Shown here: positions 5,840 through 61,429 of the stretch, in pieces
Numbering within the stretch: the first letter of the stretch is position 1
Layout: the number at the start of each line of letters is the position of its first letter
Virus record (IMG/VR): IMGVR_UViG_3300039452_000031
From: a virus
Lineage: Duplodnaviria; Heunggongvirae; Uroviricota; Caudoviricetes
Length of the DNA: 64,000 bases
Direction: 5' to 3' (one strand)
Notes under the pieces: generated by a model
Databases searched by the model: none
Told to the model about the DNA's origin: nothing
What the model saw: only the letters and a program-made list of their open reading frames with translations
Made by a program: the position numbers and the translations under genes

Positions 5840-6262
5840 ATGACCATGCGATTCAGCGGCGCGGAAATCAAATGCTCTTTGGCGACCATGAACAGGGTTA
5901 TGGCCCTGACTCGCAACCCGGACGGTCCACCTTGGAGGCCCCTTGGGCCTTTCAAGGAAGTGGAAAGTGTGTGGCTCGCCCGATCTGGTGCGAAGCTGCT
6001 TCGCGTAGGCGAGTCTCAATGGCGTGTGAGCGGCTACGACGCCTCTAGGTGGTGGAAGAACAACCTGCGCCGAGATGAGGTTGCGGCTGTTGATGAGCTT
6101 AAGGCTGCCTATCACGTCTATCGTGCTATTGAACACCTCAAGTACGTGGACGCCACTCTCATGACCTCCTATGAATCCAAGATCAACTGGAAAGGGCTGT
6201 GGGGCGTCTACAACGATGGCACTGTCACGCCCGCAGAGGCCACGCTTACTCGAAGGGGCTGA
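5840..6262 (+). CDS. hypothetical protein
   Basis: 140-aa ORF with RBS GAAGG. Confidence 0.45.
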   Translation: MTMRFSGAEIKCSLATMNRVMALTRNPDGPPWRPLGPFKEVESVWLARSGAKLLRVGESQWRVSGYDASRWWKNNLRRDEVAAVDELKAAYHVYRAIEHLKYVDATLMTSYESKINWKGLWGVYNDGTVTPAEATLTRRG

Positions 6263-6264
6263 GA

Positions 6265-33355: not shown

Positions 33356-33766
33356 ATGGAATGCAATCTGACCCAAGAACGAATTCGGAGCGTCTTTCTC
33401 GCTCACGGCTTCACGATCAAAGAAGGCCATGCCGATCTGAAGCCTTACGTGTATGAGGCAGCCAAGGCCTTGATCGAGGCCTCACTAGCGGACTATGTGT
33501 TGACCAAGAAACCTGAGGTCACGGCCTTGATGCAGATGGCCCGAGCCATGCGCCTTGCCACGCCTGACTTCTACGATACGGCCTACAAGACATTGCAGAC
33601 CGCCCTCTACGGTTTCCTGACCCAGATTCCCAAAGAGGAGGACCTTCGTCAGGTCGGAATCTTGCACGTTGACGATCAAGTTGGCAGACAAGTTAGGTGG
33701 CTGATTCACGATATGCCTGATGACTCTCCGCTGTTTGCCCACAAGATTCACAAGGTTCACAAATGA
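33356..33766 (+). CDS. hypothetical protein
   Basis: 136-aa ORF. Confidence 0.45.
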   Translation: MECNLTQERIRSVFLAHGFTIKEGHADLKPYVYEAAKALIEASLADYVLTKKPEVTALMQMARAMRLATPDFYDTAYKTLQTALYGFLTQIPKEEDLRQVGILHVDDQVGRQVRWLIHDMPDDSPLFAHKIHKVHK

Positions 33767-35052
33767 CGGCCGACACCAACACTGCCTTAAGGCGGGCTCC
33801 CCACAAGAGCCATTGGATGCTCTACCAGACCTACGGCTCGCATCTCTACGGCATGCAATCGGCCGCCAGCGACTGGGATCGCAAGATCATCTACGTCCCG
33901 CAGGAGAGGGACGTGCTGCTTGGTCATCGCCTCTTGACCATCAGGCATCGTTACGATGCAGAAGGCAACCGCATTCACGATCAGGATCCCGTTCCGCCCG
34001 GAGGAGAGGAGCTGGAGTTCATCCCAGTCCAGAAGTTCGTCTTCGACTTTCTGGAAGGCTCCACATACGCCGTGGAGATGGTGCAAGCCTTCAAGGCCTC
34101 TGAGGCCAAGGTCTCTGGCGACCCGCATCTCATTTATCAGACCTTGGCCCTTATGTCAGCGCTGACGGGTATGCGTCACCAGCACGTCAAGAGCATGGTT
34201 GAGTTTGCATCCAAGCAGGTCTACGACTATGTGCATCGTGGTCAGCGCATGGCCTTGGCTGAGAAGGTGCTGTGGGCTGTAAACACAATCGATGCCCTGC
34301 ACGCACAGACTGACTCTGACGTTCGACCCGTGCGCTTGAAGTCTGCCTGGGAGGAAACAACCGTTCTCGATTTTCTGGCCGAGAAGTACGGATTGAAGAT
34401 CGGCCAGACGGAGAACAACGGGCAGCCGTTTCGAACCCTAGTCGTCAACGATAGGGATTATGTGGAAACTGTACCGCTCTACGACCTCGTCGACTCCCTG
34501 ACTAGGATGATCAAGTCCTACGGCAAGCGCTCGTCGGAGGCAGCCAAGGAAGAAGTGGACTGGAAGTCTTTGGCTCACGCTGTTCGGGTCTATGAGCAGG
34601 TCGAGCAGTATCTGTGCCAAGGCCAGATCACCTTTCCGAGGCCTAACGCCGAATGGCTTAGGGACATCAAGTTGGGTCTTATCCCCGTAGAAGAGGTGAA
34701 GGCCCACCTAGTGAACATGGAGAATCGGGTCAAGGCCTTGATAGAGTCCCCGAAGTACCAGTTCTTCGATACCCGTAGTCGAGCTGATCTTCAGCTATGG
34801 GGCGAGCGCATTCTTTTCCTCTTCCTGAAGAGTTTCTACTTCGGTAAGCCGTCTGAGTCTAAGTCGAATGTCTTTGGTGCATTTCGAATTCCGGAGACGA
34901 GCTATAAGACAGTTCAGGTTGTGGAACGCGCGATCTACGTCTGTCCAGACAGGGACATCGAGTGTGGCCCATATGCAGCGAACTGGTGTACTGGCTGCCC
35001 TCATTGGCTTCGAACCTTGCCAGAGGATGACGGATCATCTGCTCTAGACTAG
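33763..35052 (+). CDS. predicted nucleotidyltransferase (RNA-repair-pathway Pol-beta superfamily-like)
   Basis: N-terminus MLYQTYGSHLYGMQSAASDWDRKIIYV fits the GSxxYG...SDxD signature. C-terminal Cys cluster CGPYAANWCTGCPHW. Confidence 0.45.
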   Translation: MTADTNTALRRAPHKSHWMLYQTYGSHLYGMQSAASDWDRKIIYVPQERDVLLGHRLLTIRHRYDAEGNRIHDQDPVPPGGEELEFIPVQKFVFDFLEGSTYAVEMVQAFKASEAKVSGDPHLIYQTLALMSALTGMRHQHVKSMVEFASKQVYDYVHRGQRMALAEKVLWAVNTIDALHAQTDSDVRPVRLKSAWEETTVLDFLAEKYGLKIGQTENNGQPFRTLVVNDRDYVETVPLYDLVDSLTRMIKSYGKRSSEAAKEEVDWKSLAHAVRVYEQVEQYLCQGQITFPRPNAEWLRDIKLGLIPVEEVKAHLVNMENRVKALIESPKYQFFDTRSRADLQLWGERILFLFLKSFYFGKPSESKSNVFGAFRIPETSYKTVQVVERAIYVCPDRDIECGPYAANWCTGCPHWLRTLPEDDGSSALD

Positions 35053-37932: not shown

Positions 37933-39573
37933 GTGACTGGCGCAGCACCAAGTTACATTGATTACCTAACGGACCTGATTTGCAGGGTCTCGAACGACCA
38001 TCACATAACATTTCTCTCTGAATCCGGCACTCGCTGGATTGATAACGAGCAATTGCTCTGCTTTGTGGAATATCTGCACGAGGCGGATCGGCAACAGTAC
38101 CTGCATGCGGTTGCCAACCTTGATGGTCACGCCTTCTCCCGCATCAACGCCCGTCTGAAGACCAAGGGCGGTAGCTATGTGTGGATGGAATTCACTTTGA
38201 TTGCCATGTCGGCGGGCAATCAGATCGCCATCTGTGGTCGAGACATCTCCCACTGGAAGACGATTGAAGCCCGCCTTGAGCAGGCTGCCATGTACGACCC
38301 CCTGACTGGTCTCGGCAACCGTTCCCTTCTGGCGAAGGCCATTGATGACTACATCGCGGTCGCTAAACACAACACTTCTGGCTTTGCCCTCTTAGTATTG
38401 GACCTCGACGGCTTCAAGAAGGTCAATGACTCCCTAGGCCATCTGGCGGGGGACGAGATTCTGGTCGAAGCTTCCCGTCGTCTGAAGGGGGTTCTACGCG
38501 AGCAGGATTTAGCAATCCGCATGGGTGGCGATGAGTTCGTCATCATCCTTCCTGGGGCGCGAACCCCGGCTGCCGTCGAAACGGTCTGCATCAAAATCTT
38601 GCGAGCCATTGAGAAGCCGTTCCTCACCGACTCTGGAAACCTGGTTCATCTTTCGACCTCCATCGGTACATCGTTCTACCCTACTCATGCCCATGAGCTT
38701 CAGTCTCTTCTGCAATGCGCAGACTCTGCCATGTATGCGGCAAAGAAGCAGGGAAAGAATTGCTCCAAGGTCTACGATCCCTCTTCTGAGGGTCGTCACA
38801 ACATTGTGACCATGGAGAGTGCAATGTATGCTGGCATCCAGCAAGGCGAATTCTACTTGGAGTTCCAACCCCTGTTCGATCCTTCCGGGGACCGAATGCT
38901 AGGGGCCGAGACCTTGATGCGCTGGCGTTCGGAAACCTTCGGCTCTGTGTCACCAGCGACCTTCATTCAAGTGGCCGAGACCTCTGGGCTTATTGAATAC
39001 CTAGGTGACTGGTGCCTGCGGGCCTCCTGTCACTTCTTGAAGCGCATCAACCTACAGAACCCGGAGTTCAAAATCTCGGTCAACGTATCGTCCCGGCAGT
39101 TCCAGATGCCGTCCTTCAGGTCTTCACTTCAGCGGGCGGTTGCTGAGATTGAGATCAATCCTCATAACCTCATCTTGGAGATCACTGAGAACTCGCTTAT
39201 GAAGGACACGATGGAGGTCATCAACACTCTGGACGAGATTGACGCCCTTGGCGTGTGCGTGGTCCTCGATGACTTTGGCACCGGCTACTCTTCGTTGGCA
39301 TACCTGAGTCGTTTCCGTCTCAAGGCCCTAAAGGTCGACAAGTCTTTCGTGGACAAGATTGGGGTCTCCAAGTCGGATGAAACGATTTGCAGCGCCATCA
39401 TTTCCCTGGCGCATGCTCTAGGTATGTATTGTGTGGCCGAAGGCGTGGAGACCAAGGAGCAGCTGGACTTCGTGGCCTCCTTGGGTTGCAACATGATTCA
39501 AGGCTACTTGTTCGGGAAGCCGTTGGCAGCTAACGCGCTACTCGATCTAATCTTCCAGAAGGCTGTGGCATGA
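37933..39573 (+). CDS. PAS-GGDEF-EAL protein (putative diguanylate cyclase / c-di-GMP phosphodiesterase)
   Basis: AGGAGG RBS 5 nt before GTG. GGDEF domain: LVLDLDGFKKVNDSLGHLAGDEIL ... RMGGDEFVII. EAL domain: ETLMRW, NVS, EITEN, DDFGTGYSS, KVDKSF, AEGVE, QGY. PAS-like N-terminus. Confidence 0.8.
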   Translation: MTGAAPSYIDYLTDLICRVSNDHHITFLSESGTRWIDNEQLLCFVEYLHEADRQQYLHAVANLDGHAFSRINARLKTKGGSYVWMEFTLIAMSAGNQIAICGRDISHWKTIEARLEQAAMYDPLTGLGNRSLLAKAIDDYIAVAKHNTSGFALLVLDLDGFKKVNDSLGHLAGDEILVEASRRLKGVLREQDLAIRMGGDEFVIILPGARTPAAVETVCIKILRAIEKPFLTDSGNLVHLSTSIGTSFYPTHAHELQSLLQCADSAMYAAKKQGKNCSKVYDPSSEGRHNIVTMESAMYAGIQQGEFYLEFQPLFDPSGDRMLGAETLMRWRSETFGSVSPATFIQVAETSGLIEYLGDWCLRASCHFLKRINLQNPEFKISVNVSSRQFQMPSFRSSLQRAVAEIEINPHNLILEITENSLMKDTMEVINTLDEIDALGVCVVLDDFGTGYSSLAYLSRFRLKALKVDKSFVDKIGVSKSDETICSAIISLAHALGMYCVAEGVETKEQLDFVASLGCNMIQGYLFGKPLAANALLDLIFQKAVA

Positions 39574-40928
39574 ACCCGATTTCAAAAGACATCTTGGAAA
39601 AGATGAAGGGGCGTACGGACTTCCCGTCCCTTGCGTCCACAATCTCCCTGCTGCTGGACGAGCTTCGGAAGGTGAACTCTAGCACCTCATCTGCGGAACT
39701 GAATCGCTTGATCTCCACAGACCCTGCGTTGACAAAGAAGGTGCTTCGTCTTTGCAACTCGCCCATGTACGCACAATTCGGTGGGCAGGTGGCTAGCGTT
39801 GAGGAGGCAGTGCGCATTCTAGGCACGCAAGCCATCAACTACTTGGCTCTCAACGTATCGGTTTTGAACTCCTTCACGGACGATAAAGAAGCTGAGGATT
39901 CGAACGCCAAGCTCTCGCTCTCCATTATGGCCGCCAATATGGCGCACGACATTGATGTCGGTGACGATCCTCCGAGCATCAGACCCCTGAACGTCACGAT
40001 TGCCAACTTCGCTCGCCTCTCTGTGGCTTTCTTTCTGCCTGAGCGTTGGGCTAAGGTAGAGGAGGAGATGGCCAAAGGGCAAGATCAAGACCTTGCCTGT
40101 CTTGGGGTGCTTGGCTGCCCGTTGGGTGACGTAGCTAGGGACATTCTCTCCTCATGGCGGTTTCCGGAGTCCCTTATCTCTGTCGCCACCGGGGAAGATC
40201 AACGACCTTACGTGGACTTCTTCAACGCCGCCTCTGAGGAACTAACTCAGGAGGTCCCGAACATGGAGGCTCTGATCGATCGGTTCCCGGCCTTGGTAAC
40301 GCCTACCATTCGGCGTCAGGTGCTGGACTCCTTGGCCGTGGAACAGCAAAAGTTCATGGGTGAGGACACGTTGAGGGCCATCTTTGATAACCGTCGAAAG
40401 AAGTTCAGCGTCGCCTCTGCGTTGGAAGGCATCGACGGCTCTAGGGAAAGCCTGGCCACTTCTCTGCCAAAGCTCATGAAGTGCCTCTTGACTTTTGGAC
40501 CAGATCGGGTAGTTGTGGCCTCCCGAAACATCCTTGGGCCTGATAAGTTCCGCATCCTGTACTTTTACGATAAAGACTCGGGCATGGAGTCCGTTCTTCC
40601 AGAGGACCGTCGCGGCTTCCTCTTGGAGGAGGTGCCCATGATCTCCATCTGCCTGGCCAAGCAAATGGACGTCAACGTGCGAGACGTTCAGGCTCTCAAG
40701 GCGGGATCGAATGTGGCATCCGCACGTCTGGATCTATTTCCGTCTTACATGCGCAGTCTGTGCCTCCTTCCACTGGAGTTCCCGAACCGCTCGCAGAGTG
40801 TTGTCTACTTGGCCTGGAGGGGGCCCAATGCTTTGGACACCAAGGCAATGAATGAGATCCTGAACTTTAAGGCCGCGGTCATCAACGCCGTGTCCTCTTA
40901 CGAGGGCCCTGTGCTAGCCGACGCTTAA
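39570..40928 (+). CDS. HDOD-domain protein (putative c-di-GMP/signal-transduction accessory)
   Basis: KVLRLCNSPMYAQFGGQVASVEEAVRILGTQAI matches the HDOD core pattern. ATGA overlap with the GGDEF-EAL gene. Confidence 0.55.
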   Translation: MNPISKDILEKMKGRTDFPSLASTISLLLDELRKVNSSTSSAELNRLISTDPALTKKVLRLCNSPMYAQFGGQVASVEEAVRILGTQAINYLALNVSVLNSFTDDKEAEDSNAKLSLSIMAANMAHDIDVGDDPPSIRPLNVTIANFARLSVAFFLPERWAKVEEEMAKGQDQDLACLGVLGCPLGDVARDILSSWRFPESLISVATGEDQRPYVDFFNAASEELTQEVPNMEALIDRFPALVTPTIRRQVLDSLAVEQQKFMGEDTLRAIFDNRRKKFSVASALEGIDGSRESLATSLPKLMKCLLTFGPDRVVVASRNILGPDKFRILYFYDKDSGMESVLPEDRRGFLLEEVPMISICLAKQMDVNVRDVQALKAGSNVASARLDLFPSYMRSLCLLPLEFPNRSQSVVYLAWRGPNALDTKAMNEILNFKAAVINAVSSYEGPVLADA

Positions 40929-42036: not shown

Positions 42037-42126
42037 GGAACCGTGGCAGAGCGATTTATTGCAGCGGCCTTGAAAGCCGCCGATGGGGAAGCCTATCCGT
42101 GGGTTTGAATCCCACCGGTTCCGCCA
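42037..42126 (+). tRNA. tRNA-Ser (anticodon TGA)
   Basis: Perfect 7-bp acceptor GGAACCG/CGGTTCC. Anticodon loop CTTGAAA. Long variable arm. T-loop TTTGAAT. Encoded GCCA 3' end. Confidence 0.9.
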
Positions 42127-42141
42127 TACATGGAATAGTGC

Positions 42142-42711
42142 ATGAAGATCCAAGCTAAAATGCGATTGACCGACTCCTTAGTGCTGGGTGCCCACCGCAC
42201 TATCGAGCAAGCTATTCTGGTACCTGAGGTTGCCAAGGCGGTCAAGGACTTTGTCAAGTCATATGGGAAGTCGTTGCTCCTCATAGGTGGCATTGCGGTC
42301 TCTTACTACACCAGACCAAGGGCTACCACTGACGCAGATTTTCTGTTCTCGTCGTCAGAAGCGGCTCCAGATCGAGTTGAAGGCTTCAAGCGAATTCGTG
42401 CTCATGCCTTTCTTCACCTTGAAACGCATGTTGAACTGGAAATCCTAGACCCTGACTTCTTGGGCATAAGTGAAACCTTATACGCTCAGGTGGAGACCTC
42501 GGCTGTACGAGTAGCTGAGCACTTATCGTTGCCGTCCATCGCTGGGCTTATAGCTCTAAAGACTTGTCGATTGAGTTTTCAAGACAAGGCGGATATCGAC
42601 AACCTGCTTAGGGTTCTTGAACAGCGCGGCAAGGAGTTCTCTATACCCGAATGGGACGTACCGCATGAAAAGGTAGAGGCATTCAATGCCTTTTTGAAAG
42701 AACGATGCTAG
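42142..42711 (+). CDS. nucleotidyltransferase-fold protein (AbiEii/minimal NTase-like motif)
   Basis: LLLIGGIAVSYYTRPRATTDADFLF fits the GG...(R)xT/S-DxD NTase signature. Confidence 0.4.
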   Translation: MKIQAKMRLTDSLVLGAHRTIEQAILVPEVAKAVKDFVKSYGKSLLLIGGIAVSYYTRPRATTDADFLFSSSEAAPDRVEGFKRIRAHAFLHLETHVELEILDPDFLGISETLYAQVETSAVRVAEHLSLPSIAGLIALKTCRLSFQDKADIDNLLRVLEQRGKEFSIPEWDVPHEKVEAFNAFLKERC

Positions 42712-42971
42712 GAGACTTGATGAACAATATGGAGCGTAGGGTGTTATATGTTGTGGCCAACACCATTGGTAGGGACCTCAAGGAGATGAATTTGGACATG
42801 ACCTTGGAGGAGTTGGAAATCGACTCCCTAGACAACGCGGAGATCATGCTCGAACTGGAAGAGGAATTCGAAATTCAGATTCCAGACAATGTGTGGCGCC
42901 CGCCTCCGCAGACCATCAACGCATATGTCAATAGGGTTGAGGCCTATCTATCGACTTTCAAGTCTGACTAA
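42705..42971 (+). CDS. acyl carrier protein-like
   Basis: LEELEIDSLDNAEIMLELEEEFEIQIPD has a DSL phosphopantetheine-attachment-type motif in ACP helix-II context. 88 aa. Confidence 0.55.
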   Translation: MLGDLMNNMERRVLYVVANTIGRDLKEMNLDMTLEELEIDSLDNAEIMLELEEEFEIQIPDNVWRPPPQTINAYVNRVEAYLSTFKSD

Positions 42972-43023: not shown

Positions 43024-43100
43024 GGGCCGGTAGCTTAGCGCTCCAAAGCGACGTTCTCATAAAGCGTTGATCGCGGGTTGGAATCCCGCCCGGCCTACCA
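43024..43100 (+). tRNA. tRNA-Met/Ile2-type (anticodon CAT), atypical D-loop
   Basis: Acceptor GGGCCGG/CCGGCCT (G1:U72). Anticodon loop CTCATAA. T-arm GCGGG-TTGGAAT-CCCGC. D-loop AGCGCTCCA lacks GG. Confidence 0.7.
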
Positions 43101-46055: not shown

Positions 46056-46763
46056 ATGACTACCATTGCATGGGATGGCGAACAACTTGTAGCCGACAAG
46101 GCTGTGGTCATGAGCGGGCATCGTGCTCTGACCTGTAAGGCGCGAAAGCTCGCATCTGGTTTTCTTGTGGCTGGAACTGGTAGCGGGCCCTACGTCGAGG
46201 AAATGATTGCCTGGTTCTCTGACGGTGCAGACCCTTCCAAATTCCCAACTCATCAACGTGACCTCGAAAAGTGCGCCATGTTGATCGTCGTGTCCGAGGC
46301 AAAGGTCGTCAAGCTCTACGATGGCAGTCCGTACCCAATTCTGATCGAGGATCAGCAGTACGCTATCGGCTCCGGTAGCCACTACGCCCTGGCTGCCATG
46401 CACCTTGGAAAGAACGCGATTGCTGCCATCGAGGTTGCTGCTCATTTCGATCCCAACACCTCAGCAGAATACGATGCGCTAGGTTTTGAGCCCCAGACTG
46501 CCACCGTAGACAAATCCCAGCTTCTTGAGGAGTCGTACACAGAGATCATGGATCTTGTTCATGCTCTTGAGGACACGGCGTTCAGGCATGGTTGGAGCTT
46601 CGGACAAGAAGATCCAACCATGCCAGGAGACTCTGAGGAGCAGAAAGATCTAGATGATCTTAAGACCGACATAGAGAACAAGCTAAGTCGTCTTAGGGCC
46701 TCAACGCTTCCTTGTGAGGGCGGGAAAGATAAATTACCGAAGATGCGTAGGAGAAGGTCATGA
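46056..46763 (+). CDS. HslV/20S-proteasome-beta-like Ntn-hydrolase peptidase
   Basis: MTTIAWDG... has Thr immediately after Met. CKARKL, LVAGTGSG and QQYAIGSGSHYALAAMHLG parallel the HslV blocks TTIV..., AGFAGG and AIGSGGNYALSAARAL. Confidence 0.6.
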   Translation: MTTIAWDGEQLVADKAVVMSGHRALTCKARKLASGFLVAGTGSGPYVEEMIAWFSDGADPSKFPTHQRDLEKCAMLIVVSEAKVVKLYDGSPYPILIEDQQYAIGSGSHYALAAMHLGKNAIAAIEVAAHFDPNTSAEYDALGFEPQTATVDKSQLLEESYTEIMDLVHALEDTAFRHGWSFGQEDPTMPGDSEEQKDLDDLKTDIENKLSRLRASTLPCEGGKDKLPKMRRRRS

Positions 46764-47365
46764 ACTTGGATCTAAACATTACGTTTGAGCCCTTTCCTGA
46801 ACCTGTCTTGGAATTCGAATTCGCAGGACTTAAGTGTTACAACCATACCAAGGTTCTTCTGAACGGCGATTGGTGTCTGACAATAAATAAGTACCAGGAT
46901 CTTGATGTCCAAGTTCCGGTTATGGATGAGTGGGGCGATGAGGTAGAGGAAGACGATGAGCCCAAGGAAGTCGTGTCCTACGCGGTGAAGGCCAGATGGG
47001 ACATGCTGAAGGTCAATCACGACCCAATTGGGGCAGTGACAGAGGAAGACAAGAAGATTCCCACAATAGAATTGGCTCGAATTCACGCTGCTGCGGCTGC
47101 AGGTCAGGTCGCCAACTTCCTTCGGGAGAAGATGCGACTCTTTGGAAACGGGTCTGAAGCAAAGGCCTCGAAAGCCACAAGGTACAGATTCCAGTATGGC
47201 GACAAGGCTAATCAGACGGTCACTGTATATGCCACATCTCTTGAGGAAGCTCGTATCAAGGCCGTTTCGGAAATGAATCACAGGCTCCTGCTCAAGGGCA
47301 AGGTTCCACCAACCATCTGGGCTCTGGACCTCGTACCCTGGGTCACTGGCGGCAAATCAATTTAA
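46760..47365 (+). CDS. hypothetical protein
   Basis: ATGA overlap with the upstream gene. Confidence 0.45.
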   Translation: MNLDLNITFEPFPEPVLEFEFAGLKCYNHTKVLLNGDWCLTINKYQDLDVQVPVMDEWGDEVEEDDEPKEVVSYAVKARWDMLKVNHDPIGAVTEEDKKIPTIELARIHAAAAAGQVANFLREKMRLFGNGSEAKASKATRYRFQYGDKANQTVTVYATSLEEARIKAVSEMNHRLLLKGKVPPTIWALDLVPWVTGGKSI

Positions 47366-47387: not shown

Positions 47388-47699
47388 ATGCGAATCCAAC
47401 CCCGCAACGAATACGTGGTCCTCAAGGTCATTGAAGCTAAGAAGCACGGTGGCATTATTGTCCCGGGTCAAGAGACGGAACGCAATCTCCTCACCGTGGT
47501 CTCCGTTGGCCAAGGCGGATTGACTGTCGATGGCCGCCGTATGCCCATTGAGGTTTCCGATGGTGTGCCCCTCAAGTCCGGGGATGTGGTGTTTCTGAAA
47601 CAAGGTGAGTACGAGACTTTCGAGCACCAAAAGGTTCAGCACCTGATTGTTCCCCAATCGGCTTTGATTGGCATCGAACTGCCTCAAGTCAACGACTAA
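47388..47699 (+). CDS. GroES/T4 gp31-like co-chaperonin
   Basis: IQPRNEYVVLKVIEAKKHGGIIVP...VVSVGQG...GDVVFLKQGEYETFEHQKVQHLIVPQSALIGIE parallels GroES (RPL.DRV.VKR.E.E.KS.GGIV...EV.AVG.G...GD.V.F..Y...E.....EE.LI..E.DILA..E). RBS AAAGGAAAAGAAA. Confidence 0.5.
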   Translation: MRIQPRNEYVVLKVIEAKKHGGIIVPGQETERNLLTVVSVGQGGLTVDGRRMPIEVSDGVPLKSGDVVFLKQGEYETFEHQKVQHLIVPQSALIGIELPQVND

Positions 47700-47929
47700 A
47701 GTCCATACTGGGGACCTATACTCCTAACCAAACACGCGGCGAGTGTGAAGTAGAGTCCACACGCAGTTGCGACCCGGGGCGACCAGCGGTGCTGGAAGGC
47801 AATCAATGAGGTCCTGAACGGCAGGGCAACCCAACAGCGCAAGATCGTATCGATAAGTCGTTTTACGAAAGCCTGATTCAAGACCTCACCATTTGTAGTC
47901 CGTGAGATACACAGAATAAAGCATGTGAG

Positions 47930-48008
47930 TGGTCGGTGAAAACTAGGACCACGGAAAGCAGACGTTGATGGGTGCAAGACCCGGGTTCGATTCCCGGCAG
48001 CTCCACCA
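47930..48008 (+). ncRNA. ssrA: tmRNA (ssrA), acceptor piece of a circularly permuted two-piece tmRNA; 5' boundary approximate
   Basis: 3' end AAGACCCGGGTTCGATTCCCGGCAGCTCCACCA parallels the E. coli tmRNA 3' end (...GGACGCGGGUUCAACUCCCGCCAGCUCCACCA). T-arm CCGGG-TTCGATT-CCCGG. Acceptor 3' strand CAGCTCC, discriminator A, encoded CCA. Confidence 0.75.
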
Positions 48009-48080
48009 CTAGGTTCTTACAAGGGCCTAGTAGTGCGTTCTGAACATTGCTCGATGAGTTCAGAGTAGGGCCCTAGTGAT

Positions 48081-48300
48081 GGGGCTGAACTGGTTTCGAT
48101 TGCGTTGCTGAGACTGAAGCTACATGCCGAGGTAGTATGGATCCTCGTTAAAAGCCTATGCAACAAAAGTAACTGCAGCCAATGACAGCAGCTTCGATCA
48201 GCGCCTCGCGGCCTGATCGACAAAGCTCTGCCGGGTTCTACCTAGCTTAGGTTAGGTGTGTACGGCGGAGGGCCCGGGCACCTGATAATGACGGTGTCTT
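48081..48300 (+). ncRNA. ssrA: tmRNA (ssrA), coding piece: acceptor 5' strand, PK1 and tag ORF AANDSSFDQRLAA; 3' boundary approximate
   Basis: GGGGCTGAACTGGTTTCGATTGCG parallels GGGGCUGAUUCUGGAUUCGACGGG. It pairs with CAGCTCC, giving a G3:U70 pair. PK1 reads CATGCCGAGG...CCTCGTTAAAAGCC, as in E. coli CAUGCCGAGG...CCUCGUAAAAAGCC. Resume codon GCA at 48175 and TGA at 48214-16. Confidence 0.8.
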
Positions 48301-48512
48301 TGACAGAGCGCAAGCTCAATGAACCCGGGCCACCTTTCTCTTTGCAAGGCGATTGTGAAGCCCATTCCGACCAGATGGCCATCTGGGTAGCTCGATTCTT
48401 GAGTGTCGGTTATACGCCACATTCTCGTCCTGATGTTTTGCTAGGACAGCCACTACCTGTCTTAGGAAAGCATGAGTGGGTTTCACAATCTCTTTATTTC
48501 CTGGAGATGAAC

Positions 48513-48683
48513 ATGACTGATCCTCAATACAAGGTCATCAATCTAGTGACACTAACCGATCAGGAACGTAGGGCAATAGAGGCCTTCCTAGACGAACACT
48601 GGGAGCGTTTCTGTGCCGTGGCCGAGCATTATCTCACTGACGAAGAGATTGACGAGCTGGGCGACAAACTGGAACAGGAGTAG
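48513..48683 (+). CDS. hypothetical small acidic protein
   Basis: GGAG RBS 6 nt before ATG 48513. The ORF-track GTG 48258 extension lies inside the tmRNA coding-piece region and has no RBS. Confidence 0.35.
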   Translation: MTDPQYKVINLVTLTDQERRAIEAFLDEHWERFCAVAEHYLTDEEIDELGDKLEQE

Positions 48684-48686: not shown

Positions 48687-49070
48687 ATGCAAAGACGTTC
48701 CTTCTTGGCTGCCATTCTCGCAGCCTCCGCGGCTCCGGCAATCGTGAGCGCCAAAAGTCTCATGCCTTTGCGGGTAGTTAAGCCCAAAAGCTTTTGGGTA
48801 TTCGAAGGCGAGCTAGACCTCACGCTCGCGGACAAGCTCAACGCCCTAGGTATTAGTAAAGATTTCCTGTACTCGCCATCTTTGTCGGAAATGAATTCCC
48901 TGTCTGAAACTTCGCTGCGAGCGCATTATCAGAGGATAAAAGAGCACCGAGAGCTTTACCAGGATTGTTTGAATCCTGAGTTTGGAAAGGTCTTCAAAGG
49001 GGCAATAATCAATGAGTGGGACGCGTTGGCGCTAAAGCAACGCCAGCGGCGTCAAGCTTACGGTTTTTAG
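48687..49070 (+). CDS. Tat-signal secreted protein (putative)
   Basis: N-terminus MQRRSFLAAILAASAAPAIVSA has twin-arginine RRSFLA plus an AxA site. RBS GGAGTAGG. Confidence 0.5.
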   Translation: MQRRSFLAAILAASAAPAIVSAKSLMPLRVVKPKSFWVFEGELDLTLADKLNALGISKDFLYSPSLSEMNSLSETSLRAHYQRIKEHRELYQDCLNPEFGKVFKGAIINEWDALALKQRQRRQAYGF

Positions 49071-49316
49071 TGGAAGGTATCCCATTATGGCCCTCCTAAT
49101 GTGCCTGTTGGTTGGTCTATTCCTGACGTTTCAATTGGGGCCTCTCAGACCGTCGACCAACCACGGCACTGACCAACTTGGGCCCCAGAGGCCCGAAGAG
49201 CGATGGCGATTGTGACCATCGGGCTAGGGGCCGCGCTCGAAGGGAACGTGCGCATCGGTAACCCGCCCAAAAGGTAGCCGATAAGGTCTCATGGTTTCGA
49301 CCAATGCAACTGAGGA

Positions 49317-49345
49317 AGGCGTGGATGCTTTGTCTACGCCTTTTT
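49317..49345 (+). terminator. rho-independent terminator
   Basis: AGGCGTGGA(N7)TCTACGCCT followed by TTTT. Confidence 0.75.
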
Positions 49346-49358
49346 CCTTGTCTCCTTA

Positions 49359-49370
49359 GAACTGTAAACA
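49359..49370 (+). promoter_or_regulatory. GAACTGTAAACA motif copy 4 (variant first base)
   Basis: 50 nt before ATG 49420. Followed by the hairpin AGGTC(ACGTA)GACCT. Confidence 0.45.
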
Positions 49371-49419
49371 CTCTGGCACAGGTCACGTAGACCTCTAACC
49401 CAAACCTAAGGTACCGATC

Positions 49420-49647
49420 ATGGAACGCTACTACGTTTTCAATCAGGACATGAAGATCCTCGACACCATCGAGGCCCCGAACGTTGAGAAGGCGTTGGAG
49501 AAGGCGAAGAAGAACCTAGCCTTTCGTTGCCTGAACCCAATCGTTGGCAAGGCTAATGAGCATGACGCGATTCTTGAGCGTATGGAGCGTGACGAACCGC
49601 GTCAGCACCGCGGTCACTACACCCAACGTCGCCATCAGCAGCATTGA
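49420..49647 (+). CDS. hypothetical protein
   Basis: 75-aa ORF. Confidence 0.4.
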   Translation: MERYYVFNQDMKILDTIEAPNVEKALEKAKKNLAFRCLNPIVGKANEHDAILERMERDEPRQHRGHYTQRRHQQH

Positions 49648-49656
49648 GGTCTGACC

Positions 49657-49812
49657 ATGACAACAGCAGCCCCAACCAAGACGATGACCAAGCTCCCTCC
49701 GCCTAAGAAGGCGTGCGAGTGCCCAAAATGCAGCCGTGAAGGCTATCGAGTCTCCAGTCCTGGGTGTAGGCCGCTGTACCACTGCGCATACTGCCGAATG
49801 CAGTTCTCCTAA
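49657..49812 (+). CDS. small zinc-ribbon protein (51 aa; not in the ORF track)
   Basis: MTTAAPTKTMTKLPPPKKACECPKCSREGYRVSSPGCRPLYHCAYCRMQFS. ATG 10 nt after the upstream stop, with GAGG nearby. Confidence 0.3.
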   Translation: MTTAAPTKTMTKLPPPKKACECPKCSREGYRVSSPGCRPLYHCAYCRMQFS

Positions 49813-49935
49813 CCTTCTGGAGATGATGAATGACACCCACGGTGCCCTAACAGTTCAGTTTCAAAGCCCAGAGTGGTTTCAGGCCACGCGCATTGGCTAT
49901 ATCAATCTTCATCAACATCCACTGTAGAGACCATC

Positions 49936-50244
49936 ATGGACATTCAAGTTCAAATCGACAAGAAGGCTGTAGAGGCCCAAATCGTTCAGGCCGTCATGGC
50001 CTCTGCACTTGGTGAGCATGTTGATAAGGCGGTTAAGAAGGCCTTTGAAGCCCCAGGTTTTAGTCGTTCTTCTTTTGTTGAGACCGCAATTCAACAGGCT
50101 TTATACGACTGCATCCGAAGTATTGCGGTTCAGGAAGTGGATAAGTTTAAAGACCTTATCAAGGCCAAGGTTTCCGAAAAGTTGACTGATGATGTCGTGG
50201 ACTCTTTTGTTTCCAAGGCTTGGGAAAGATTCACTAAGGATTGA
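49936..50244 (+). CDS. hypothetical protein
   Basis: RBS GAGACCATC before ATG. The ORF-track start 49873 has no RBS. Confidence 0.4.
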   Translation: MDIQVQIDKKAVEAQIVQAVMASALGEHVDKAVKKAFEAPGFSRSSFVETAIQQALYDCIRSIAVQEVDKFKDLIKAKVSEKLTDDVVDSFVSKAWERFTKD

Positions 50245-50304
50245 GTATGAATGACAACCAGTTCCAGAGTATAGGCAACATCGCCTAGCTTCCTGGAGGG
50301 CCAA

Positions 50305-50496
50305 ATGGCCAACACGTTGATTCCCGAACGCATCAATTTCTTGAACATCAGTGCCATCTCGTTGGCGAAGTTGATCAGGACCGAGATCAAGACCTACAAC
50401 GGTCGTGATCCGGACCTCATGACCTGCCTGACCTTGGCTCGTCTCATGAAGGAGGCCCATCGTCAGGGTGAGATCCGTGGCAGGGCTTTGAAGTAA
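50305..50496 (+). CDS. hypothetical small protein
   Basis: 63-aa ORF with GGAGGG upstream. Confidence 0.35.
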   Translation: MANTLIPERINFLNISAISLAKLIRTEIKTYNGRDPDLMTCLTLARLMKEAHRQGEIRGRALK

Positions 50497-50508
50497 AGTG
50501 AATAATGT

Positions 50509-50585
50509 CGGAGAGTAGCTCAGTTGAATAGAGCAGCGGTCTTCTAAACCGCAGGTCAGGGGTTTGAATCCCCTCTCTTCGACCA
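50509..50585 (+). tRNA. tRNA-Arg (anticodon TCT)
   Basis: Acceptor CGGAGAG/CTCTTCG. D-arm GCTC-AGTTGAATA-GAGC. Anticodon loop CTTCTAA. T-arm AGGGG-TTTGAAT-CCCCT. ACCA 3' end. Confidence 0.9.
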
Positions 50586-50589
50586 AATA

Positions 50590-50673
50590 GCGCGGGTGGC
50601 GAAATTGGTAGACGCACTTGGTTTAGGTCCAAGCGTCTTTGACGTGCAGGTTCGAGTCCTGTCCCGCGCACCA
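50590..50673 (+). tRNA. tRNA-Leu (anticodon TAG)
   Basis: Acceptor GCGCGGG/CCCGCGC. Anticodon loop TTTAGGT. Long variable arm CGTCTTTGACGT. T-loop TTCGAGT. ACCA 3' end. Confidence 0.9.
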
Positions 50674-50681
50674 CCTATTAA

Positions 50682-50755
50682 GCGGGTGTAGCTCAATGGT
50701 AGAGCAAATGCCTTCCAAGCATAAGACGAGGGCTCGATCCCCTTCACCCGCTCCA
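50682..50755 (+). tRNA. tRNA-Gly (anticodon TCC)
   Basis: Acceptor GCGGGTG/CACCCGC. D-arm GCTC-AATGGTA-GAGC. Anticodon loop CTTCCAA. T-loop CTCGATC (C at position 54). TCCA 3' end. Confidence 0.8.
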
Positions 50756-50772
50756 AATTTAAAGCCGTGTCT

Positions 50773-51171
50773 ATGCATTCAAAACTTCTTAGCACCAAAA
50801 CTTCAGTTCCCACAGGTCATGACATTGTTGATCTTGTGGCCTATCTAAAGCACGTTAGGACCTACTACAAGGATGGTATCGCTAGTCGTGCATCAGAGAT
50901 TGTGGCCCACATTGAACAGCTTACGGCCTGGATCGATCTCTTGGAAAACTCAGGCAAGGTAGATATCCCTAGAAGTCGGTTGGCTCGGGTTCATCTACTT
51001 ATTGGACAAGGTCTTGAGGCCTCAACAGTTGGCGGCAAGCACGAAGCTTTGGAACGACTTGGTCATAACATCGGGCCGTGGATTTGTGCTTCGTGCTCTA
51101 CTTCATTCCCAATGCGACCTGAGAAATGCCCTGTCAATGGCTGCAATGAACTTCTAGACAAAGGCTTTTAA
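50773..51171 (+). CDS. hypothetical protein with C-terminal zinc-finger-like Cys cluster
   Basis: CASCSTSFPMRPEKCPVNGC. The ORF-track GTG 50767 lies 12 nt after tRNA-Gly; ATG 50773 is preferred. Confidence 0.45.
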   Translation: MHSKLLSTKTSVPTGHDIVDLVAYLKHVRTYYKDGIASRASEIVAHIEQLTAWIDLLENSGKVDIPRSRLARVHLLIGQGLEASTVGGKHEALERLGHNIGPWICASCSTSFPMRPEKCPVNGCNELLDKGF

Positions 51172-51172
51172 C

Positions 51173-51772
51173 ATGAGTACCAAAGTCGATAAGCTCCACA
51201 TTCTATCGTGGCTAAGTGCGCGCTTCCGCAAGGCTAGAAAGGAACGTGAAGACTCTCCACACGATCTAGGAGCGGTGCTAAGTCAGCAAAATGCGTCTGC
51301 TGTGCTTGCGGATTTCGTTGCCGACTTTAATGTCGCTGACTCAGGTCCCTCTGCTAAAGAAATTGCTGCCACTCTAGCAAAGCCAAAGAACTGGGCTCTC
51401 TCGCCTCCTGATAAGCGGCATGAGATGGAGATGTGCGAAGTGATCACCGAACGAGACCGTCGTGAAGAGGTCATCAACCAGATTCTGGATCTCGTCCTCG
51501 GGAAAGATCGACCAGAGTGGTCAAGTGCCTATAATTTTGAGGACGCCATTCGTGATGTGCAAGCGCGCTGTTTAGACGGTGAAGCCATGTACGGACCCCC
51601 GCTGGCTTGGGTACTCTACACAGCCACACCGGCGCTTACACCCTACGGTAGTCCTTACTCTTCCAAAGAGGAGGCGTTTGCTAGCGCATTTCGCATTCCG
51701 GCTACAATAGCGTGGGAAGTTCGCCCCCTGTATGACATCCTAAGAAAAGGAGAGCAAGATGCCGCAAGCTAG
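51173..51772 (+). CDS. hypothetical protein
   Basis: 199-aa ORF. Confidence 0.45.
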   Translation: MSTKVDKLHILSWLSARFRKARKEREDSPHDLGAVLSQQNASAVLADFVADFNVADSGPSAKEIAATLAKPKNWALSPPDKRHEMEMCEVITERDRREEVINQILDLVLGKDRPEWSSAYNFEDAIRDVQARCLDGEAMYGPPLAWVLYTATPALTPYGSPYSSKEEAFASAFRIPATIAWEVRPLYDILRKGEQDAAS

Positions 51773-51965
51773 TGCAGAGACCCTGAAGGCTTGGCCTCAC
51801 GACGACCGAAAAGCCTACACGCTCCTCGAAGAGAATTTCGGAGAGAAGGGCGGCTGGTACTATCCGAAGGTTGTTGGGTATCAGCCTACTGCTGAGGAGC
51901 AGGCGGCTATCAACTATCTGGTAGAGGAGTGGGACTATGGGTACACCGCAGTTGATCCCAGTTGA
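51759..51965 (+). CDS. hypothetical small protein
   Basis: RBS AAAAGGAGAGCAAG. Confidence 0.4.
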   Translation: MPQASAETLKAWPHDDRKAYTLLEENFGEKGGWYYPKVVGYQPTAEEQAAINYLVEEWDYGYTAVDPS

Positions 51966-53796: not shown

Positions 53797-53871
53797 GCGA
53801 CCGTAGTTCAATGGATAGAACGGAACCCTCCTAAGGTTCAGATATGGGTTCGATTCCCGTCGGTCGTACCA
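53797..53871 (+). tRNA. tRNA-Arg (anticodon CCT)
   Basis: Acceptor GCGACCG/CGGTCGT. D-arm GTTC-AATGGATA-GAAC. Anticodon loop CTCCTAA. T-arm ATGGG-TTCGATT-CCCGT. ACCA 3' end. Confidence 0.9.
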
Positions 53872-58544: not shown

Positions 58545-58948
58545 TCTTCCTCATCGCCCTCGCCATGTTCGTTGTGGCCCTCGTTGGACTGCTGTATTGC
58601 GCCAAGCCTGGTCCACGACCTTATCAGGCTCTGGAGCAACTACGCCACGGTCGTAAATCTCTAGGCGTGCTTCGGATCTACAAGCGCACACCAGACGGGG
58701 AAAGTTTCGAGCTGGTGAACATTATTGGTCGTCCCTCCCTACGGTCCCGTTTCAAGGACTACGTCAATGCGAGTCGCAACGACCGTGGTTTCTTTACCGT
58801 CATGGCCTTTATGTGTGTTGGCCCTCTCCTGGGAGGCATCAGTGTATTCTTGCCTCTACCTGATGGGCTTATGGCGGCCTACACCAATGCAGTCTACCTG
58901 CTGTCGACCACAATCGTCCTCCTATTCCTCATCACAGGTGATAAATGA
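58532..58948 (+). CDS. hypothetical membrane protein
   Basis: TM segments IVIFLIALAMFVVALVGLLY, and MAFMCVGPLLGGISVFL...LLSTTIVLLFLI. Confidence 0.45.
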   Translation: MDIVIFLIALAMFVVALVGLLYCAKPGPRPYQALEQLRHGRKSLGVLRIYKRTPDGESFELVNIIGRPSLRSRFKDYVNASRNDRGFFTVMAFMCVGPLLGGISVFLPLPDGLMAAYTNAVYLLSTTIVLLFLITGDK

Positions 58949-59397
58949 AACTCGCACTCATGGACATCGATGGTTGCCTAAGTAGCTGCGATCATCGAAT
59001 CGATCACCTCCTTAAGGACGGTGACTACGAAAAGTACCTCAGCCTAAGCCATCTGGATACGCCTATTCCCCAGGGTGTCTACTTCTATCGCCTTCTCTTC
59101 GAGGACCCGAATGTCCTCCCCGTGTTTATTACCGCCAGAGGCGAAGACCAAAGGGAGATGACGGTCAGTCAGATTCAGAAGTTTGTCTTCCCGCATCTGG
59201 TGGACGGCAAGGACTTCGAGCTGTGGATGCGCCCAGTGGGAGATAAGCGCCACGACTACGACCTGAAGATTTGGCATCTGGAGTCCAGAAACCTTACCCC
59301 CGAAAACATTTTCATTGCTTTCGATGACCGCCAAGTCATCTGTGAGGCTTATCGCAAATTTGGTATCGTGGCGTACCAAACCGCGACCGGATACTGA
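58945..59397 (+). CDS. HAD-superfamily phosphatase-like protein
   Basis: Motif I LMDIDGCL (DxDG). Motif IV-like AFDDRQ. Confidence 0.4.
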   Translation: MKLALMDIDGCLSSCDHRIDHLLKDGDYEKYLSLSHLDTPIPQGVYFYRLLFEDPNVLPVFITARGEDQREMTVSQIQKFVFPHLVDGKDFELWMRPVGDKRHDYDLKIWHLESRNLTPENIFIAFDDRQVICEAYRKFGIVAYQTATGY

Positions 59398-60116: not shown

Positions 60117-60482
60117 ATGGAACTCACCACCGAACAACTGGCTACCCAGAGCCTAGGGCAACTTAAAGAACCTCTGGAGCACTGTGCCGCCCATCACCAG
60201 CAGGTTATCTCCAAGGCTTTCGATGCCTTGCGGAAGAAGTACGAGGCGGGGCTACAACCTTTCAAGGCGTATGAATATGTGCGCCTTGGCTCAGGCGGTA
60301 TTTGGGCGGCTGATAATCGAATTACTTGGTCCCAGTTCAATATCGGATCCAAGGCTGTCCTCACCCTAAACGCAAATGGGGAGATTGAGACCTTTGATCT
60401 TCCGTTCCTGATCTGGGTCTGGCTCCGTAAGACCTGGCCGTTCCGATTCGCCAAAGCCTTCTGGTATGGATGGGCGGCATGA
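60117..60482 (+). CDS. hypothetical protein
   Basis: ATG 11 nt after the upstream stop. The ORF-track start 59958 lies inside the upstream gene. Confidence 0.45.
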   Translation: MELTTEQLATQSLGQLKEPLEHCAAHHQQVISKAFDALRKKYEAGLQPFKAYEYVRLGSGGIWAADNRITWSQFNIGSKAVLTLNANGEIETFDLPFLIWVWLRKTWPFRFAKAFWYGWAA

Positions 60483-61429
60483 GTGCTTCAGCCTACCAGC
60501 ATTCAGAGGTTTTCGCCCAACTGAAGAATGTCAAGGAAGTCATTCAAGGTAACCTCACAACTCACCAGTACCTTGCAACCTTGGATTACTTCCTGGACAA
60601 CGCGGTCGCGCCAATCTTGACGGCTTATCCTGGTCTGGTCGACAACTACATGGCAAAGATTGTGGCTTGGCAGTCGCATCGACCACAAGTCAAGTTCTCG
60701 CGTGAGGACAAGGCTCATTTATCAGTTCACCTATTCAACGCCTTGACCACGTCAGGTAAGGTGAAGCGCGAGCACTTCCGAGTCATGATGTTTAATCGCG
60801 GCATCCTGTTTGGGCTCCTATCTGTTTTTCAACGGCAGGTCGCTGAGTACAAGAAACTTCATGACCCTTTGCTGAAGATCAAGAACCGCAGGCGCCGTCT
60901 TCTCCTCCGCAAGGCAGAACTTCGCACAGGTTCGGCCTACCTATACGCTGCGATATCGGAGAGCGAATACTGGGCATCCAAAGCCTACCGCTTCAAGGAA
61001 CTTATCATCCAGAAGTACACGCGGACTACTCTCATGAATGCCAAGTCGGCCTATGAAGAAGTTGGTTACGCGGTACCCCTGAACGATGTGATCCAAATCT
61101 ACTTGACCTTTCTGGTCAAGGCGATTGACAGGTGTCACTCACAGAAGGGAGTGCTCACCACCTTCGTCCAGAACTGGTTCTATTCTGCTAAGGCGGCTGT
61201 TATGAAAGCTGCCGTGGAGGAAAGAACTGTAAATGGAGGAGACGAACTGCTAGAGACCGTTGAGCACGCTATCGGACCCTCAACTGAGTATGAGGCCGTG
61301 CAGTATCTGTGCGCTACTGCAAAGCGTTTGGACCCCGAAGGTACCCTTCGGTTCGGTCTCGGCATCCCTGAGCACTTCTCGTCCTCCGATCTTAGAAAGA
61401 TCGCAATGTTCATAACCCCGGAGAAATAA
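60470..61429 (+). CDS. sigma-70 region-2-like protein (candidate phage sigma factor)
   Basis: KELIIQKYTRTTLMNAKSAYEEVGYAVPLNDVIQIYLTFLVKAIDRCHSQKGVLTTFVQNWFYSAKAAVMKA aligns in pattern with sigma region 2.1-2.3 (ELI..NLRLVv.IAKrY...g....DLIQEGN.GLmkAV.KFd..rG.kFSTYA.WWIRQAI). The start may be ATG 60479 (ATGA overlap). Confidence 0.4.
   Translation: MGGMSASAYQHSEVFAQLKNVKEVIQGNLTTHQYLATLDYFLDNAVAPILTAYPGLVDNYMAKIVAWQSHRPQVKFSREDKAHLSVHLFNALTTSGKVKREHFRVMMFNRGILFGLLSVFQRQVAEYKKLHDPLLKIKNRRRRLLLRKAELRTGSAYLYAAISESEYWASKAYRFKELIIQKYTRTTLMNAKSAYEEVGYAVPLNDVIQIYLTFLVKAIDRCHSQKGVLTTFVQNWFYSAKAAVMKAAVEERTVNGGDELLETVEHAIGPSTEYEAVQYLCATAKRLDPEGTLRFGLGIPEHFSSSDLRKIAMFITPEK

Follow-up and report, generated by a model that had tools for sequence, protein, structure and literature searches.

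Does a tRNA-like 3' end that lies upstream of its own 5' acceptor strand in a phage genome belong to a working ribosome-rescue RNA, and what would a phage gain from it? The question is raised by positions 47930-48300 of a 64,000-nucleotide (nt) stretch of the IMG/VR virus record IMGVR_UViG_3300039452_000031 (Caudoviricetes), here called the window and numbered from its first letter, in which an earlier note made from the sequence alone had proposed a circularly permuted transfer-messenger RNA (tmRNA; gene, ssrA). A scan of the whole window with ARAGORN placed a tmRNA of the permuted type (tmRNA*) at 47916-48307, its tag being AANDSSFDQRLAA, and the Rfam model RF04321 (tmRNA_permuted) matched 47952-48216 over its full length (model positions 1-213); its 75.5 bits exceed the gathering score, which is 47 (E = 1.2e-12, taken over the whole window). 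The tag and coding coordinates given by ARAGORN were the same as those read directly from the sequence. Since the encoded CCA ends at 48008, upstream of the first nucleotide of the 5' acceptor strand (G1, at 48081), the order is permuted: acceptor piece, 72-nt linker, and coding piece. This is the arrangement of T-arm, 3' acceptor strand, and CCA before the 5' strand that the note had described, with every coordinate confirmed in the sequence, and two of the checks that it had suggested, a covariance-model search and ARAGORN, came out above the gathering score and as a permuted call, respectively. It had also excluded a standard tmRNA, rightly so: neither ARAGORN nor Rfam called a one-piece form in the window, and neither found a second T-arm or CCA downstream of the coding piece, even in a permissive Rfam search. 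The core of the tRNA-like 3' half, taken as a 31-nt pattern, occurred once in the window, compared with 0.00 times expected (100 shuffles); a chance origin of this half is excluded. It is highly probable, in our judgment, that the locus is a genuine, intact circularly permuted (two-piece type) ssrA of a large uncultured lytic-type phage with a role in ribosome rescue, and the gene is, from its sequence, probably functional.

All elements of the gene are on the + strand. The core of the acceptor piece spans 47952-48008, as indicated by the RF04321 alignment, ARAGORN, the sequence itself, and a comparison with 28 other cores in register; ARAGORN sets the 5' start of the piece at 47916, while the Rfam core begins at 47952. 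From 5' to 3', it contains the 5' strands of P2 (47952-47956, 47965-47968, and 47971-47977 in the Rfam alignment), a GAC connector (47978-47980), the T-arm (CCGGG at 47981-47985, the UUCGAUU loop at 47986-47992, and CCCGG at 47993-47997, with five of five stem pairs), the 3' acceptor strand CAGCUCC (47998-48004), the discriminator A (48005), and the encoded CCA (48006-48008). The linker between CCA and G1 (48009-48080) could fold into a hairpin (-23.2 kcal/mol), which was not significant (z = -1.6); its last nucleotide, U48080, would be position -1 relative to an RNase P site before G48081. Linkers of related genes measured 56 to 80 nt. The 5' part of the coding piece (48081-48129), supported by the Rfam alignment, pairing, and family covariation, starts with GGGGCUG, the 5' acceptor strand (48081-48087). 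After it come a D-loop analogue of 12 nt, AACUGGUUUCGA (48088-48099), the 3' strand of P2a, UUGCGUU (48100-48106), and the 3' strands of the distal P2 (48115-48118 and 48125-48129). The acceptor stem is fully paired (GGGGCUG with CAGCUCC, 7/7) and includes G48083:U48002, the G3:U70 pair of alanine identity that had been predicted, and P2a pairs GGUGCAA (47971-47977) with UUGCGUU at all seven positions, three of them G-U.

Related genes were retrieved with a pattern made of the canonical T-loop, CNGCUCCACCA, a linker of 50 to 80 nt, and GGGGCNGANNNGGNUUCGA. It matched 58 metagenome contigs (L092 to L149) versus only three genomes (L150 to L152) among 185,579 species represented by one genome each, and ARAGORN called a permuted tmRNA in 57 of the contigs and in all three genomes. 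Two of the genome matches are chromosomal Burkholderiaceae genes, in Robbsia (beside gyrA) and in Chitinasiproducens. In about half of the contigs, the gene belongs to a tRNA array or adjoins one (as many as 18 tRNAs within 9.5 kb), and a PHROGs scan of one or two of the longest open reading frames (ORFs) per contig gave matches to phage families in 10 of 10 contigs, including portal, rIIA/rIIB, phage NAD ligase, and DnaB-like helicase. The Rfam beta_tmRNA model (RF01850) fitted all 12 of these related loci on which it was run, the two chromosomal ones with ca. 160 bits and the other ten with 85 to 152. These results suggest that the beta-type two-piece tmRNA with a canonical T-loop is carried mostly by uncultured phages. 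For four of the contigs (L136, L137, L143, and L146), the ARAGORN tags begin upstream of the conserved AND motif (e.g., VKSKQPINANDNSYALAA or DDCKSSKPRK...), and these long versions look like mis-set resume codons.

The fixed spacing of the core allowed 64 nt per gene to be compared in register, giving 29 distinct cores including that of the window. Within the acceptor, T, and P2a helices, 99.5% of the cells were paired, versus 42 to 55% when the partners were slid by one to three columns, and 11 of the 19 pairs showed compensatory changes on both sides. The covariation score was 0.505 versus 0.03 to 0.07 in the slid controls, and none of 500 shuffles reached it. A large part of the core was prescribed by the retrieval pattern, so that evidence comes only from the positions left free; the informative pairs are acceptor 6:67 (U-A, C-G, A-U, and G-C), three in the T-stem, and all seven of P2a. 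The earlier note had stated that acceptor pairing without covariation in related phages would speak against the two-piece arrangement; at the level of the family (29 distinct cores), the covariation is there. Outside the tRNA-like domain, nothing could be aligned between the window and the related genes.

The remainder of the coding piece holds the signals for tagging. A candidate pseudoknot 1 (48128-48161) has a CGAGG/CCUCG hairpin (48128-48132 with 48143-48147) at the position of the Rfam consensus hairpin, and a second stem drawn by eye (six pairs, including two G-U, between 48135-48140 and 48156-48161), so that the pseudoknot included in the earlier note seems plausible from the sequence. 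The resume codon follows a spacer of 13 nt whose last letters are UAACU, with U at -5 and A at -4, and UAACU-GCA (48170-48177) aligns to the RF04321 consensus UAAaU-GCa. Because of this context, resumption at GCA 48175 was preferred to resumption at GCC, the codon after it, the frame being the same either way. The tag frame (48175-48216) comprises 13 codons encoding AANDSSFDQRLAA and the stop codon TGA at 48214-48216, in both the ARAGORN prediction and the Rfam alignment, as the note had read it. The tag has an AND-type start and the C-terminus LAA, within QRLAA; LAA is the ordinary targeting signal for ClpXP-type proteases. Tags ending in RLAA were also found on phage-borne relatives (ANEDSFVAERLAA, ANDAFFGAERLAA, and ANDAFYGEDRLAA).

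Downstream of the tag, the stretch 48217-48350 folds with -55.8 kcal/mol (z = -3.27), and none of 200 shuffles was as stable. The predicted 3' domain of the coding piece (48226-48345) consists of a long interrupted hairpin (48226-48270) and a branched domain closed by an 8-bp stem, GGCCCGGG/CCCGGGCC (48271-48278 with 48324-48331), after which the tail ACCUUUCUCUUUGC follows at 48332-48345 (stem-tail element, ACCUUUCUCUUU). In the modeled fold, closing stem and tail are probably the terminator and 3' end of the gene. A scan for simple terminators gave nothing convincing flanking the gene; this domain escapes such a scan because its loop is large. The metagenome gene caller had placed a 141-amino-acid (aa) ORF with a GTG start (48258-48683) over the structured 3' domain and the probable terminator. 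Judging from the sequence, the real gene there probably starts at ATG 48513 and encodes 56 aa; a GGAG motif lies 7 nt upstream of this codon, and the PHROG match of the ORF falls within the 56-aa part. On the other side, the leader (47700-47951) showed no structure (z = -0.16) and no Rfam match, riboswitches included.

Whether the gene really belongs to a phage depends on the surrounding contig. The window is part of the ENA metagenome contig ERZ27313792:k141_1575514 (131,559 bp), its position 1 being contig position 55,223. Phage genes are found on both sides of the tmRNA. Within the window, they include a split T4-type topoisomerase II, an NAD-dependent ligase, RtcB, a jumbo-phage-type SSB, a phage sigma factor (60470-61429), and a peptidase; a UvsX-like recombinase begins inside the window and extends beyond its end, and the large terminase subunit (E = 6e-196) and the portal (E = 1e-159) are located 1 to 8 kb past its 3' end on the same contig. 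The genes share one strand almost without exception, and the majority are orphans with no Pfam family. The nearest protein relatives, with 45 to 52% identity, come from Ralstonia phage phiRSL1, Burkholderia phages BcepSauron, BcepSaruman, and BCSR5, and Achromobacter phage Motura. At the DNA level, blastn against GenBank phages gave no match besides a 42-nt stretch of T-arm and acceptor strand; a 39-nt tRNA-Leu match to Rhizobium phages was trivial. That the contig is instead bacterial, a megaplasmid, or a chimeric assembly, the tmRNA being a host gene, could be argued from its origin in a metagenome assembly with no isolate and from its GGDEF-EAL and HDOD genes (see below), which look cellular. 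We give this explanation next to no weight in view of the terminase, portal, UvsX, phage-type SSB, split topoisomerase II, and phage sigma factor on the contig, of its nearly uniform strand use and homologue-less genes, and of the phage genes that flank the tmRNA on either side. In addition, an independent Logan assembly (SRR7091409, locus L089) contains the same junction from an orphan gene through Cpn10 to the start of the tmRNA, which argues that the tmRNA was not joined to phage DNA by mis-assembly. With two dedicated detectors, helix pairing, family covariation, and phage genes on the contig in agreement, the proposal that the phage carries its own permuted tmRNA holds.

Immediately upstream of the tmRNA, on the same (+) strand, is a gene for a GroES/Cpn10 co-chaperonin homologue (103 aa, 47388-47699; PF00166 Cpn10, phrog_3188), preceded by an orphan gene (46760-47365) and, two genes upstream of the tmRNA, by one for a 235-aa homologue of the HslV-family peptidases (46056-46763; phrog_1040, E = 2.7e-29). 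Three neighboring proteins are orphans or nearly so. For the Cpn10 protein, a search of 5.8 billion proteins yielded one homologue (P0003, 54% identity), and in the contigs that encode it (L090/L091) a tRNA-like 3' end occurs ca. 170 nt downstream of Cpn10, with the sequence GGGGG-UUCGAUU-CCCCC, CGGCUCC, A, CCA. The order of Cpn10 followed by the acceptor piece is thus kept in the only diverged relative found. Its T-stem differs from that of the window by compensatory substitutions (CCGGG/CCCGG in the window versus GGGGG/CCCCC in the relative), which argue for selection on the RNA. The relative ends 22 nt past the CCA. We also noted that L089 (end 1313) stops in the 3' acceptor strand at ...GCTCCACC and L090 (end 2620) at ...GGCTCC, which fits a branch in the assembly graph, the tRNA-like sequence being possibly shared with another tmRNA in the sample, perhaps that of the host. 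No IMG/VR record matched the 24-mer of the gene or the shared-motif pattern used for close relatives; a first pattern for relatives in metagenomes matched nothing, missing even the contig of the window itself. No tmRNA was found near a weak homologue of the downstream gene (L156). Among cultured phages, blastn and tblastn searches for a beta-type permuted tmRNA or for this Cpn10 returned only short tRNA-like fragments or nothing.

These data also bear on whether the gene could be a bacterial ssrA that the phage once acquired, for example through imprecise excision or recombination, and that is now decaying or without function, or else a relic of an attachment site based on tmRNA. Genes for tmRNA are common integration sites of prophages, ssrA fragments occur in phage genomes (PMC9004378), and attR and integrase features lie beneath the ssrA-fragment matches that we saw in GenBank phage genomes; the gene has moreover diverged from all lineage models. 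However, both halves and the tag frame are complete, the tRNA-like helices are all perfectly paired, the element and its position after Cpn10 persist at 54% protein identity with a compensated T-stem, and no bacterial genome or metagenome contig has a close copy that could be a recent source. There was no Pfam record of an integrase in contig positions 48,716-128,218 (ca. 80 kb). The phage genes around it and the lack of an integrase in this region indicate a complete ssrA in a large lytic-type phage genome rather than an attachment-site remnant, and we consider decay very unlikely.

Several observations weigh against a functional two-piece tmRNA. Pseudoknot 1 includes a hand-drawn 6-bp helix with two G-U pairs, and each of the distal P2 segments (47965-47968/48115-48118 and 47952-47956/48125-48129) has one mismatch in the Rfam alignment. 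When the two pieces were cofolded, the acceptor piece paired with the tag region in the minimum-free-energy structure instead of forming the canonical P2; this structure was rejected as a guide because tmRNA folds are pseudoknotted and protein bound. No sigma-70-like promoter was detected in the 250-nt leader. No contig of a relative extends into the coding piece with its tag, the only relative found (L090/L091) stopping before it. The gene has diverged to the point that beta_tmRNA gives 49.9 bits, for the tRNA-like domain alone, compared with 85 to 152 for the phage-borne relatives. In the ca. 80 kb covered by Pfam records, part of a genome that is probably >200 kb (the contig is probably incomplete), there was no SmpB, and tblastn with E. 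coli and Thermus queries, a weaker test run without a positive control, gave no SmpB match better than E = 0.1; activity would then rest on a host SmpB accepting a divergent tRNA-like domain. Finally, every step of the mechanism beyond the DNA sequence, as set out next, is drawn by analogy.

The experimentally established model for such an RNA is the two-piece tmRNA of Caulobacter crescentus (Keiler, Shapiro, and Williams 2000), which, as far as it is recounted in PMC9004378, is made as one precursor from which tRNA-processing enzymes remove the linker; by the same account, its two RNAs are held together by the acceptor stem and P2 and are active in tagging. The window shares the gene order of this alphaproteobacterial type (RF01849), and the mechanism proposed here is assumed from it. 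One precursor transcript would span the region; it may also include the HslV-like peptidase and GroES genes that lie upstream, and its end is probably at the GC stem and U-tail near 48345. RNase P would cut before G48081 and tRNA 3'-end processing would trim to CCA48008, releasing the linker, after which the two RNAs would stay joined through the acceptor stem and P2. The host alanyl-tRNA synthetase would charge the RNA, and host SmpB and EF-Tu would bring it to stalled ribosomes, where the nascent chain would gain (A)AANDSSFDQRLAA. The LAA end would direct the tagged chain to ClpXP-type proteases of the host. The likely benefit is that ribosomes are kept free and truncated proteins cleared while host mRNA is degraded during infection; proposed benefits of phage tmRNAs in the literature are that hijacked ribosomes are kept available or that proteins are recycled or retargeted (PMC9004378, PMC7162821).

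A different purpose is conceivable, in which the RNA is made and processed but serves mainly to redirect or hijack the trans-translation of the host rather than for ordinary rescue, be it through outcompeting the host tmRNA, with the result that rescued chains gain a tag chosen by the phage (and maybe handled by the neighboring HslV-like peptidase), through titration of host SmpB, or through sensing of stalled ribosomes. The tag is unlike the typical betaproteobacterial ANDERFALAA style and belongs to a "...RLAA" class found mainly on phage-like contigs; the gene clusters with the phage HslV-like peptidase and GroES; and, with no phage SmpB in ca. 80 kb, the host pool must be used. Alternative roles of phage tmRNAs have been proposed (PMC9004378, PMC7162821), and the tmRNA of phage DS6A, a tRNA-like domain only, was reported to resemble a tmRNA-inhibiting molecule (PMC4131195). 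In contrast to a DS6A-type decoy, the gene retains its entire tag frame, the resume context of which is conserved, and the canonical LAA C-terminus is kept, pointing to ordinary ClpXP-type targeting. The clustering with the peptidase may also be coincidence. HslV-family homologues are widespread in phages, unlinked to tmRNA there, and ARAGORN detected no tmRNA near those in 54 scanned loci (L008 to L061) out of 80 in IMG/VR with ≤45% identity. As HslV-like peptidases are common in phages without a tmRNA, adjacency to the peptidase and GroES genes is consistent with a role in proteostasis without proving one; the HslV-like peptidase, Cpn10, and tmRNA genes possibly form a protein-quality-control cluster. 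On balance, hijacking appears unlikely to be the main role, and we favor rescue of ribosomes by an intact tmRNA.

If the gene is such a tmRNA, does it reveal the host, as the earlier note had suggested? The answer is only weakly positive. The best partial match among the lineage models was beta_tmRNA (RF01850), a local match to model positions 78-165 with 49.9 bits, below its gathering score of 84, and the protein relatives are phages of Betaproteobacteria. The alpha (RF01849) and cyanobacterial (RF01851) models of the same clan did not reach their gathering thresholds and scored lower than beta_tmRNA in a permissive search; an alphaproteobacterial host is hinted at only by the 39-nt tRNA-Leu match. 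No lineage model was passed, and phage Melnitz carries an alpha-type ssrA at odds with the type of its host (PMC9004378), so that the claim stands no further than this. From the sequence, a diverged beta-type origin and a betaproteobacterial host are our best guess, based on the phage relatives, the beta-type genes of Burkholderiaceae, and the grading of phage copies away from the bacterial consensus. We doubt a more specific scenario, in which the window and L090/L091 represent a phage-specific lineage of permuted tmRNAs, distinct from all three bacterial two-piece lineages and inherited vertically in a phiRSL1/BcepSauron-like group, with an HslV-orphan-GroES-tmRNA operon and an RLAA tag read by phage proteolysis; if it were true, the gene would be part of a protein-quality-control module run by the phage and not a spare part borrowed from the host.

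Comparison with known systems places the gene closest to the betaproteobacterial two-piece tmRNA, the "third lineage" of Sharkady and Williams (2004) as cited in PMC9004378. Both have the permuted order with the acceptor piece first, similar linkers (56 to 80 versus 72 nt), a 7-bp P2a, the GAC connector, a 12-nt D-loop analogue ending in UUCGA, and an AND-type tag start, and the chromosomal examples of Robbsia and Chitinasiproducens share the canonical version of the T-loop. In contrast, the distal P2, pseudoknot 1, post-tag hairpin, and terminal hairpin do not align, and the tag of the window is longer and ends in QRLAA instead of FALAA. The uncultured phage contigs (L092 to L149 and L001 to L007) have the same architecture, UUCGAUU T-loop, and GGGGCNG acceptor, several with tags of 12 to 13 residues ending in RLAA like that of the window; all those tested pass RF01850 (85 to 152 bits), whereas the window does not. 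The two-piece tmRNAs of cultured phages, namely, OM43 phage Melnitz, Pelagibacter phage HTVC008M, the Caulobacter phages CcrSC/CcrBL9/CcrSwift/CcrKarma, the Synechococcus phages S-CBWM1/S-CAM1, and the Stenotrophomonas phages Mendera/Moby (PMC9004378, Table S1), are likewise complete permuted ssrA genes in large lytic-type phages, usually near tRNAs and with no integrase, and the same role in sustaining or manipulating host translation has been proposed for them (PMC9004378). Their similarity to the window is limited to the universal tRNA-like core. Melnitz has a glutamine riboswitch, of which Rfam found no match here; Table S1 of PMC9004378 lists no Ralstonia or Burkholderia phage, unlike the phiRSL1/BcepSauron-like lineage of the window; and a GroES/HslV neighborhood is not reported for the cultured two-piece phages in that study. 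The tmRNAs of mycobacteriophages (Bxz1, Wildcat, and Cosmo, among others) and Bacillus phage G are phage-encoded ssrA genes as well, of the one-piece, unpermuted order and with unrelated hosts and tags (PMC4131195), although the 42-nt stretch of T-arm and acceptor strand in the Wildcat group is 90.5% identical to that of the window.

Knowledge of phage tmRNAs goes back to those of mycobacteriophages and Bacillus phage G (Hudson et al. 2014, PMC4131195). Huge phages were found to encode tmRNAs and SmpB (Al-Shayeb et al. 2020, PMC7162821), and a 2025 tmRNA database contains 79 bacteriophage sequences. Among 18,146 phage genomes, Buchholz et al. (2022, PMC9004378) counted 402 that carry a tmRNA gene; Caulobacter jumbo, Synechococcus, and Stenotrophomonas phages and Pelagibacter phage HTVC008M are among the entries of their Table S1, and 53 of the 133 unique phage forms were two-piece according to ARAGORN. 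Together with the 58 metagenome contigs retrieved here, this makes the description of the permuted form as unusual in a phage overstated: it is uncommon but established, and the gene of the window is a divergent new example. What distinguishes it, as far as the sequence goes, is this divergence, given that it fails all three lineage-specific Rfam models. We found no literature tying a tmRNA to phiRSL1 or BcepSauron, whose genomes were not scanned with ARAGORN. The finding leaves the current understanding of how tmRNA acts unchanged; it extends the list of phage ribosome-rescue RNAs to a jumbo-phage lineage related to Burkholderiales phages. The conserved order from GroES to tmRNA, of which we met no description in the literature, and the excess of metagenome contigs over sequenced genomes (58 versus 3 of 185,579 species) are both leads for investigating trans-translation in phage infection. 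For annotation, the older lineage-specific Rfam models miss the gene, while only the merged tmRNA_permuted model and ARAGORN find it, and the gene caller put the 141-aa ORF over the 3' domain.

The tmRNA lies in a region of the genome rich in RNAs for translation. Six tRNAs, all on the + strand and found by both ARAGORN and Rfam (52.7 to 68 bits), surround it: Ser-tga (42037-42126), Met-cat (43024-43100), Arg-tct (50509-50585), Leu-tag (50590-50673), Gly-tcc (50682-50755), and Arg-cct (53797-53871). A small acyl-carrier-like PP-binding protein is encoded between tRNA-Ser and tRNA-Met (42705-42971). The same region of the genome contains an RNA-repair-like set (6199-8115, 8608-9879, 33763-35052, and 58945-59397) made up of an NAD-dependent ligase, an RtcB RNA ligase, an RlaP-like nucleotidyltransferase, and a HAD_PNKP-domain protein, whose composition suggests a defense of translation RNAs against host anticodon nucleases.

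An 11-mer, AACTGTAAACA (as a 12-mer, RAACTGTAAACA), recurs on the + strand at 13000, 18964, 44684, 49360, 52829, and 54834. All six copies are intergenic, on the coding strand, and without conserved flanks, and ca. 0.8 would be expected (none of 100 shuffles reached six). From this distribution, the motif may act as a promoter or regulatory site of the phage, perhaps together with the sigma factor encoded at 60470-61429; the copy at 44684 heads the run of genes that ends in HslV, GroES, and tmRNA. Upstream of the window (contig 48716-51891, L153:1-3176), we found an intein-containing helicase and a protein with an Acb2/Tad1 anti-defense hairpin domain. Lastly, a GGDEF-EAL protein (37933-39573) with diguanylate cyclase and phosphodiesterase domains (E = 1e-45 and 2e-68) is directly followed by an HDOD protein (39570-40928); by their domains, the two are a predicted cyclic-di-GMP signaling pair, an unusual cargo for a phage.

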